A stretch of DNA of 64,000 nucleotides, from positions 83,342 through 147,341 of the forward strand of contig NW_019217922.1 in the NCBI RefSeq assembly GCF_002571385.2, written 5' to 3'. The position numbers and the translations under genes were made by a program. Shown here in pieces: positions 12,997 through 15,900 of the stretch (its first letter is position 1; every line of letters starts with the position of its first letter). Below the pieces are notes generated by a model. That model did no database searches. It was not told the origin of the DNA and saw only the letters and a program-made list of their open reading frames with translations. Origin of the DNA: Stylophora pistillata. Taxonomy: Eukaryota.

Positions 12997-15900
12997 ATGT
13001 CTTGTATTCACTACAAGTTTCGAAGTGCTTTAGAATATGATACAATTACATTCGACGGACTTTCTATCTCTCTTGCCGACCTCAAACAGTCGATTATTAC
13101 TCAGAAAAAGTTCGGAAAGAACAGTGACTTTGACTTGGAGGTTACAAATGCCCAGACGAAAGAAGGTGAGCTTTTATTTTGACGTGGTGTCTAGGTTTGT
13201 TACGAATTACTTCTGTATTAAAGTGATATTTGAAGTTTAGTCGAATGAACGTTTTTCTTTGTTGTTTTATTCCGTAATTAATTCACGATGGTTTCCTCAA
13301 CTGAACGTAAGTTCAAACTCATGGGATCAAACAGTTCAGAATTTCGAGATGAAGGATTACTTGCTTTCGCTTGAGATTACACAATCATTTGATCAATCTT
13401 TCATTTAAGTAATCCTTGATTAAAGAAAATTCCTTTTCACCAACCCTCACTTATAGCTAACTTAAAAAAGCATAGCAGAATGATATGTTTTAGAATTTTT
13501 TTAACCTGTAAGAGCAGGCAAAAACATGCTGAAATCTGGCCCAAGTTTGTTTTATGTTTCAATCAATTATGTTCACGCTTTACTATTTGTCTTTAACATA
13601 TTAACAACAAGTAAAACATTTTTCCTAGCGATTGATACTAAGTTTTTGCTTTCTCGTATTACAAACATTAATGTCACATGAATAGGCCAATCTTACATTA
13701 AGTAACTCTTTTTAACTTTTACGGTAGAATACAAAGATGAGATGACAATGATACCAAAGAATTCCTCGGTGGTTGTTCGTCGTATTCCAGTTGGGCCAAA
13801 AAGCAAAGCTCAACTGGCAGCGTAAGTGCAGAATTTTTTGTCAAACATTGTTAGATTGTGTCTAGAGTATGCATGGTGACCATTTTCCATTTTGTGAAAT
13901 ATCCCTAGTTGAGGTACATACCTAACATTATCTGCAATTTGTTTGGTTCATCATGTTAAGTTGTTAAGAAAGAAAAACCACAAATCTACTCTAAGTAGGG
14001 GTTTCAATAAAAGCCAACTACCAGTGATCTAAAGCTGCATATAGACAACCTCTTACTGCCATTTCTTTATTAGCCCACAAACAAGATATTGTGTTTACAT
14101 TTTACAGTCGCTCTGGAAAAAGTTATTGTTGTTTAAAGTCTAGTGAACACGCTTCTTATATTTTTCCTCAAGGATTTGTCTGGACTCTCAAAAACTGTCT
14201 TTCAATGAAAGACAGTATAGATTGCCAGCAGAGCCTTTTGGTTACATGTGTGATGCTAAAACTTATGATCATGCATCATTCTTTTTTATTACTTTTTTGG
14301 ATTTTTTTTTTGTTTCCGACTGTGAGTTAAGACATTTTACACTAGTTTGCTAAGGTTCTGGAGAAGAAATGTTTGTTTTAAAAAAGCCAAATAGAAATAT
14401 ATGTTTGGCTTTCCATCTTTTAGATAGTTTGGTTTGATGTGTATTGTCTGAAGCTGGCATCTCTTTCTTAAAATACCAATTTTGCCTTTCAGGGATAGGG
14501 CATCTCCTTTTTCAAGTGGAGAGCAGAAAACAGTATGTACATGGTTGAAGAATACTTGTAATCAAATCAATACTGTAGTTTTGTAAGATATTTGTAATAG
14601 CTAGAAGCATTTACTGATGGGTTCCCTTCTGTCATTTGTAATCTTGATTTCTGAGATAGTTTATTGAAAGGAATACGGTTCTGTTTAGCATCACTGGATA
14701 GAAAAACTTCATAACGGGGATCTTTGTTGTCTGGGGTGGGAATGGATTGTAAAACTTTGCATGTTTATCTTCAGAGCTAATACCTTTGTTGAATTAAATT
14801 CAGTGAAAATAATTTGTGGTACAAAGGATAAATGGCTTGCATCATATAATTAGAATTCTTAATAATATCATGGGGAATCAGTACAATCTTTCCGAAAGTT
14901 TGAAACAACTTTCCAGTTGACTGTGACATGTAGTATAATGATGCAAAGTTCAATACTTGAATTTTTTGGTTGTCTCCAGCATGGAAATTCAAGGTTAATG
15001 TACAGTTTCTTAAGTGGGAACAATTATTTTCAGTCTTGGGATAATTTTGTCCTTATTTACAATAGAGATGTACAGAGGAGCTGTATAATTAAGATGCTTT
15101 CACATGTAAGGGCATTTTAAGTCACAGCACATTGCTTAAAGCCAAATTTCTTATTTCCCATATTACTCTAAGGGTAGCAGCACATGTTATTTATTTAGAT
15201 GTTAACAGGTTTATTTGGTCAACTCTCAACAAATCGAACCTTCCTAGTATCAGTAAATCAATGTAATGGGAGTTGTGAACAAAATAAATGACTGGGTGTA
15301 AAAATAAAAGTGAGATATACTTATTGCATTTCTACAATGGCAGGCCTTCTTGACCTCGCTCTTGGCTGAAAAATTCTTTTTCTTTTATAAATGTAGTCAA
15401 GGTCAGAAAGGTTAATTTACATGATTGTAAAAGAGTGGCAGTATGGCTAGTCATTTATGAAAAAGGCCTATTCTGAATATTCAAATTTAATATAGCATCA
15501 ATCGTAAAGAAATGGAGAGAAAACAAATATTTTTTTATGAAAAAAGTATATAAACTATAATGCTGTCTGAAGATAGATTGTAGTAAATGTCTGTCAGAAA
15601 TCCAGAAAAAAAATCAAAGGTTAAGCAGTAGAGGTTCAATTTATTGGGAGTTGACTGTAGTTCTGAGCAATTTTGTAATTTAAAATTCGCATTTCCAACA
15701 ATCCTAAACAAGAGAGGAAATGATAGCTCAACAAATGTGCTTATTAAATGAATGCATCAGTTAATGCCATGTGAGCCCACTAGCATGCATAGAATCATAG
15801 GTAATAGATTTTTTCAAAATATGAAGAAGTGACCTTAAATTTTCTTATTTTCAAATGGAGTTAACCTTGAGTAAGTTTTTTGAAAACATTTGTTTAGTAT

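Follow-up and report, generated by a model that had tools for sequence, protein, structure and literature searches.

The window, a 64,000-nt stretch of the Stylophora pistillata genome, carries the gene for RBBP6, a factor required for cleaving mRNA 3′ ends, in which the exons of the DWNN domain are followed downstream by those of the zinc knuckle and the RING. The DWNN domain at the 5′ end of this gene is the single Pfam PF08783 match genome-wide, and a separate DWNN-only gene or retrocopy was rejected on the ground of that one match. Upstream, the RBBP6 RNA contigs start at 12727-12929, and the exons used here are as follows.

12997..13165, + strand: RBBP6 coding exon 1, 169 nt, phase 1 end, most of the DWNN domain
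13728..13821, + strand: RBBP6 exon 2, 94 nt, phase 2 end, end of the DWNN domain
14493..14532, + strand: RBBP6 exon 3, 40 nt, phase 0 end, linker, common to the short and full-length forms
18248..18295, + strand: RBBP6 exon 4, 48 nt, 16 codons, acceptor ending AAG
21858..21946, + strand: RBBP6 exon 5 of the full-length form, RNA contig joint

Exons 1-3 sum to 303 nt, or 101 codons free of stops, and all three splice joints are present in RNA contigs. The joint from exon 3 to exon 4 (14532 to 18248) occurs in three of four runs and that from exon 4 to exon 5 (18295 to 21858) in four of four. The short and long forms branch at exon 3. Intron 3 measures 3715 nt and intron 4 3562 nt; the initial annotation had made intron 3 a 7.3-kb intron and by far the longest, a size that is wrong because the 48-nt exon 4 was overlooked, and with an intron 4 of 3562 nt intron 3 is therefore not the longest by far. 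Ahead of exon 4 the acceptor region (18218-18247) ends in AAG after a purine-interrupted tract, is likely weak and could slow the removal of intron 3 further. The last RBBP6 exon (30440-32116) encodes an RS stretch and, after it, a long region rich in lysine and glutamate that contains tandem peptide repeats.

Reading on from exon 3 across the intron 3 donor gives a short frame with two features of its own.

14533..14554, + strand: intron 3 donor and next bases, GTATGT after ACA, initial 22 nt of the intron unchanged in two other coral loci
14533..14586, + strand: read-through tail, 17 codons and TAA, length unconserved

The tail translates as VCTWLKNTCNQINTVVL and is closed by TAA, so that with exons 1-3 the product totals 118 aa, and the earlier reckoning of 101 codons plus 17 aa is matched by both coordinates and translation. 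This exact 118-aa protein occurs on 25 Logan contigs. The interval 14493-15400 is present, as contigs and not raw reads, in 20 runs from seven studies, four of the 20 bearing a coral metagenome label, and seven of these runs (X8, X10, X1, X3, X12, X14 and X15) were compared contig by contig; runs X21-X24 contain none of the sequence words sought. X8 and X10 are on record as poly(A) RNA, X1, X3, X12 and X14 are taken as RNA by guess, and X15, of unknown type, is unspliced through the end of intron 2, DNA-like and crosses the whole stretch. Spliced RNA of exons 1-2-3 that runs into intron 3 exists: X1 holds it as a single 2321-nt contig of spliced exons 1-2-3 plus 14493-16345, and in X14 one contig joins spliced exon 2 to 14493-16144. 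The contigs of X3, X8, X10 and X12 break at exon 3, the branch point of both forms. Depth on the contigs is of the same order for the short and spliced forms and is unsuited to ranking isoforms.

In five of the six RNA runs, from four studies, the RNA stops at 16144-16345, with contig ends at 16235 (X8), 16227 (X3), 16144 (X14) and 16345 (X1), while in X10 the contig ends at 16204 beside a variant and a low-depth piece begins at 16274. At 16235 and 16227 the loose ends presumably stem from Illumina library adapter. Internal oligo-dT priming was rejected as the origin of these ends, as 16200-16400 has no A run and at most nine A in 20 nt. No poly(A) tail was seen at the ends of the contigs, and the common stop is a hint, in RNA, of an isoform end. 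X12 continues past this region to 17513, near an ATTAAA at 17496 and an AATAAA at 17574 (17496-17579), a possible second, distal intronic site in a region that looks repetitive.

The comparison with other corals places a conserved element at the same position, and the features of this part of intron 3 are the following.

14587..16250, + strand: inferred short-isoform 3′ UTR, about 1.65 kb, its end set by rule (10-30 nt after the hexamer; spacing rule from the accessible part of PMC8887125)
15283..15308, + strand: two AATAAA of the initial annotation, contig-crossed and unconserved, at most minor sites
15937..15965, + strand: motif resembling a branch point, followed by pyrimidine tract and AG; conservation extends to L038 and L041
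16094..16302, + strand: non-coding block conserved in other corals (69-72% identity), with the likely poly(A) signal inside it
16226..16231, + strand: AATAAA, likely short-isoform poly(A) signal, lying within 11 nt that three loci share unchanged; contig ends

Four metagenome loci of related corals (L038/L040 and L041/L042) cover exons 1-3 together with some 4 kb of intron 3. Beyond the exons, three parts of them align with the window: the donor, 15937-15975 and 16094-16302 (69-72%, E 1e-12 to 1e-25). Being about 77% similar between themselves, L038 and L041 amount to roughly one comparison. Exon 4 was not found in L038, L041 or L042, which may end before it, and the comparison covers the intron short of its 3′ part. 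When intron 3 is cut into 100-nt segments, five of 37 rise above shuffles, namely the donor segment and four at 15933-16332, the other 32, with the 15283 and 15303 hexamers among them, are background, and none of the 11 segments of introns 1 and 2 does so. A 1-2 nt indel directly after the conserved first 22 intronic nt shifts the frame of the tail in the coral loci, which together with the position of the conserved segments argues for selection on the donor and the RNA end site and not on the peptide. Indels within the conserved block are not multiples of three. A nested RNA gene behind the block was rejected, since 14400-18400 gave no Rfam match at gathering score and a fold z of -0.61; two weak Rfam matches in that range both lie outside the block. 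The likely signal is the AATAAA at 16226, which sits within the main conserved intron block and is followed by a GU-rich stretch identical in three loci.

The initial annotation had named AATAAA hexamers at about 15283 and 15302 and suggested a search for transcripts ending within about 14.6-15.4 kb. Hexamers do exist, at 15283 and 15303, but as the poly(A) site they do not hold: unbroken contigs cross them in six of six RNA runs, and the region is unalignable to other corals. With 10 AATAAA and seven ATTAAA in 14533-21858 these two are nothing special, and they were rejected as the main site, the AATAAA of L038 at the same offset (+751) having unrelated flanks; minor use is possible because contigs drop rare ends. 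Some 260 nt before the conserved AATAAA, the 15937-15965 motif may be an alternative last-exon acceptor or a terminal-exon definition element. Were exon 3 spliced to its AG, the product would again be DWNN-only, its 10-aa tail not being conserved; no such joint is among those listed from RNA contigs.

These data also bear on whether the contigs are simply incompletely spliced pre-mRNA, a splicing intermediate or detained intron with no separate isoform behind it. Such a reading could draw on the missing poly(A) tail, on the reach of X12 to 17513 and on low-depth pieces further along intron 3, yet it would leave five runs stopping mid-intron, none of them more than about 200 nt from a single conserved AATAAA, and a conserved block that ends where the RNA ends; among the pieces listed, moreover, no unspliced RNA contig links the RNA-end region to exon 4. 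We regard it as very improbable. That intronic polyadenylation yields a short isoform of coral RBBP6 is highly likely.

The length of the product is a separate matter. Human isoform 3 (NP_116015.2) has 118 aa, 101 plus 17, with a tail starting VCKNT, in agreement with the initial annotation, and the equal length had been put forward as a mark of homology. Tail length is random among relatives, however, running from 5 to 27 aa in 18 stony-coral read-through proteins with 17 aa in one of the 18, the very result that the initial annotation had set against its own case, and some coral short forms are accordingly below 118 aa in total. From the stop frequency of the intron, a tail of exactly 17 aa has a chance of p ~0.024 and one of 15-19 aa about 0.12, and vertebrate-type tails (n=65) span 11-101 aa. 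The coral tail is unrelated to the human one beyond the donor-forced residues (3/17 identical), and the accessible text of Pugh 2006 likewise gives isoform 3 a short, poorly conserved tail, 118-150 aa in total. Tail length and sequence were rejected as evidence of homology on the chance p, the 5-27 aa range and the frame-shifting indel; the equal 118-aa length in coral and human is chance, and the tail would be a free by-product of the donor. Within lineages there are observations of another kind, in that a decapod 16-aa tail (P0366-P0370) is near-identical in Penaeus and Cherax and jawed-vertebrate tails have their first residues in common, which may point to constraint on the tail or on its RNA within decapods and jawed vertebrates.

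The first residues of the tail, in turn, report on the donor. The intron 3 donor is non-consensus, with no G at -1 and a T at +4, and is conserved. Read-through tails mostly start VC (GTATGY) or VR (GTACGT in L006 and L009), and VC follows the DWNN domain in 110 of 182 short forms vs 3 of 100 long forms, counts that include many close kin and short forms picked for read-through, a selection that enriches weak donors. Among the 78 short forms that passed a non-vertebrate filter 40 have VC and nine have VR. The other 29 lack both tags, some being exon-2 fragments or sequences from outside the animals, and roughly three of the tags seem fortuitous. As a control, a GTATG-type donor is found in three of 52 intron-1 read-throughs. 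The initial annotation had discounted VC as forced by the donor and the match as possibly in part chance; VC is nevertheless informative, because it reports a conserved non-consensus donor. The conserved items are the junction, the GTAYGT donor and the short form itself, to the exclusion of the 118-aa length.

The short form is widespread. At least 16 distinct spliced coral read-through proteins lie on at least 167 Logan contigs among the members listed of three coral clusters (9 of 10, 8 of 8 and 15 of 19), where a spliced form terminated in intron 2 has one contig. The nearest named proteins to the coral short form come from Acropora cervicornis, with KAK2563992.1 as an annotated 106-aa read-through example, and Desmophyllum pertusum, and there are other cnidarian-like short forms from unnamed taxa (P0039, P0081, P0092 and P0095). 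In sea anemone an exon-3 read-through was not found, the Nematostella record ending at exon 2. Beyond cnidarians, short forms that part from the long form at this same point are present in the decapods Penaeus (RefSeq, 29 contigs) and Cherax (nine contigs), in the tick Ixodes pacificus (six contigs), the dragonfly Ladona fulva and the sea urchin Diadema antillarum (RefSeq), in Elysia, and in two Logan proteins, one clustering with the centipede Strigamia and one closest to the nemertean Lineus; those of Ladona, Elysia and Diadema are annotations without Logan support. Among vertebrates they extend over sharks, teleosts, frogs, reptiles, birds and mammals.

The point of divergence between short and long forms, wherever a close long form is available, lies 14-18 codons before an exon 5 motif. 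The exon after the junction has 16 codons in coral vs 15 in vertebrates, and both end before the same exon 5 motif, the vertebrate boundaries being those at which protein isoforms part, not boundaries in vertebrate DNA, and the linker aligning poorly. An arthropod DNA locus, L056, has coral-like intron phases and ACA then GTATGT at the junction. In another, L057, the donor at this point is the consensus GTAAGT and the intron very short, and the feature is therefore not universal. Separately, an arthropod-like spliced transcript (L003:144-503), with an A run near its end, holds a DWNN-only frame in which read-through occurs at the next junction, the equivalent of intron 4; read-through of intron 4 also appears in several vertebrate records, with no sign of it in the coral runs. 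In many birds (proteins P0148-P0181 and named records) there are several diverged RBBP6-like copies, a fair number of them short with VC or VR tails.

An old intron could have acquired intronic polyadenylation separately in each lineage, as a weak donor and an AT-rich intron leak. AATAAA is indeed common, with 79 on the + strand of the window, tails and UTRs, the poly(A) region included, do not align from one phylum to another, the pattern is missing from L057, and in L003 the read-through comes one intron further on. Convergence would nevertheless have to place a single uncommon donor type at one junction in corals, in four groups of arthropods, in an echinoderm and in vertebrates, where intron 1 donors by contrast are varied, and we consider it improbable. 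From these sequence comparisons the isoform is likely ancestral. The core of the original suggestion, that a DWNN-only isoform from intron 3 is older than the cnidarian-bilaterian split, is supported by the RNA contigs, the conserved poly(A)-signal block and the junction and donor shared across arthropods, echinoderm and vertebrates; the arguments first given for it fail, resting as they did on a coincidence of 118-aa length, the wrong poly(A) site and the wrong intron size.

We propose that a single RBBP6 gene gives rise to a DWNN-only RNA, likely ending at the AATAAA at 16226, which is the orthologue of vertebrate isoform 3 and was inherited from the cnidarian-bilaterian ancestor, an explanation that we find reasonably, though less than strongly, probable as a whole. 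RNA of exons 1-2-3 continues 1.7 kb into intron 3 and would be cleaved at about 16250. The non-consensus donor is likely spliced slowly, to judge from CSTF3 and PCF11, so that intronic cleavage would compete with the joining of exon 3 to exon 4, and each intronic cleavage event would cost one full-length message. The DWNN domain of the product is intact, matching PDB 2c7h at E 7e-30, and its D44/R75 correspond to human D43/R74, which the accessible part of PMC8887125 describes as the contact to CPSF73, the double mutant failing to activate CPSF. Human iso3 inhibits 3′ cleavage in competition with full-length RBBP6, according to the available text of PMC4201286. As the coral protein keeps the CPSF73-contact residues and lacks everything after the linker, it would be expected to compete with full-length RBBP6 as human iso3 does; by this analogy it may work as an inhibitor in corals, at chances slightly below even. 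PMC4201286 also reports less use of intronic sites in human cells after knockdown of RBBP6, and since RBBP6 thus promotes intronic cleavage in these cells, high RBBP6 activity would favour the short form and produce negative feedback. In human, autoregulation is there proposed only, as 'an attractive idea', and negative feedback in corals is our proposal by analogy.

An alternative that differs from this explanation in the protein step only is an attenuator at the level of RNA, in which the intronic site is real, old and selected to divert transcripts and the short protein is unstable or irrelevant. The freedom of tail length and frame (5-27 aa; the 1-2 nt indel after the conserved 22 nt) would suit such an attenuator, as would the fact that the visible selection falls on two RNA elements, namely donor and poly(A) block, and the CSTF3 short forms, for which the accessible part of PMC3708835 describes no apparent protein. 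It accounts less well for termination just past an intact DWNN domain with D44/R75, for the inhibition of cleavage by human iso3 (PMC4201286, in its accessible text) and for the near-identical tails of Penaeus and Cherax. We consider a pure attenuator unlikely. With the tail free, any function of iso3 would sit in the DWNN domain or in the RNA event.

In the accessible text of the vertebrate studies (PMC1360078, PMC4201286), isoform 3 (iso3, DWNN-13) has, like the coral form, 101 codons in three exons. Both involve phase-0 read-through of a GTATG-type donor, a site in intron 3 (probable in the coral), the DWNN domain only and retention of D43/R74, whereas the coral transcript is about 2.2-2.3 kb vs 1.1 kb for human isoform 3, is known from RNA contigs and sequence, and belongs to an invertebrate, where the form has been reported absent. 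Two papers, PMC1360078, which terms the finding preliminary, and PMC3472776, confine the short form to vertebrates, the vertebrate-only report being that of Pugh 2006. CSTF3 and Drosophila su(f) (PMC3708835, accessible part) offer a like case of a 3′-end factor gene with a composite intronic terminal exon, a weak donor, to which the non-consensus coral donor may correspond, and conservation in distant animals, but unlike RBBP6 the feedback of CSTF3 is demonstrated, its short forms are without apparent protein and its reported range is fly to human. PCF11, a cleavage-factor gene autoregulated through a poly(A) site in intron 1 (PMC6428223, accessible part), pairs a weak donor with an intronic site, but its loop is described in vertebrates and involves a different gene and product. 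Further literature was drawn on (PMC4463644, PMC7471841, PMC11331416, PMC3594146, PMC13226542, PMC5546720), and within our coverage, outside which lie subscription journals and theses, no published report of a DWNN-only form in corals, other cnidarians or arthropods was found, although database annotations already contain such invertebrate short proteins, unremarked.

The coral form is a real, orthologue-like member of the isoform 3 class, with corrected anatomy, and extends its range much beyond that in print; the origin of the short form is likely much older than published. Its presence in arthropods, in a sea urchin and in further corals makes it likely that the short form is an old brake on RBBP6, in place before the lineages of corals and humans separated. 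We tentatively suggest, as a possibility somewhat short of even, that intronic polyadenylation downstream of a conserved GTAYGT donor, with the DWNN-only inhibitor that it yields, forms an ancestral cnidarian/bilaterian feedback brake on 3′-end cleavage, more than 600 million years old, which would have been missed because the invertebrates examined were fly and worm. If true, RBBP6 would join CSTF3 as a 3′-end factor with an ancient intronic brake, and beyond the fly-human range of CSTF3, and the lineages that keep, lose or move the site would provide natural comparisons on whether RBBP6 regulates itself.
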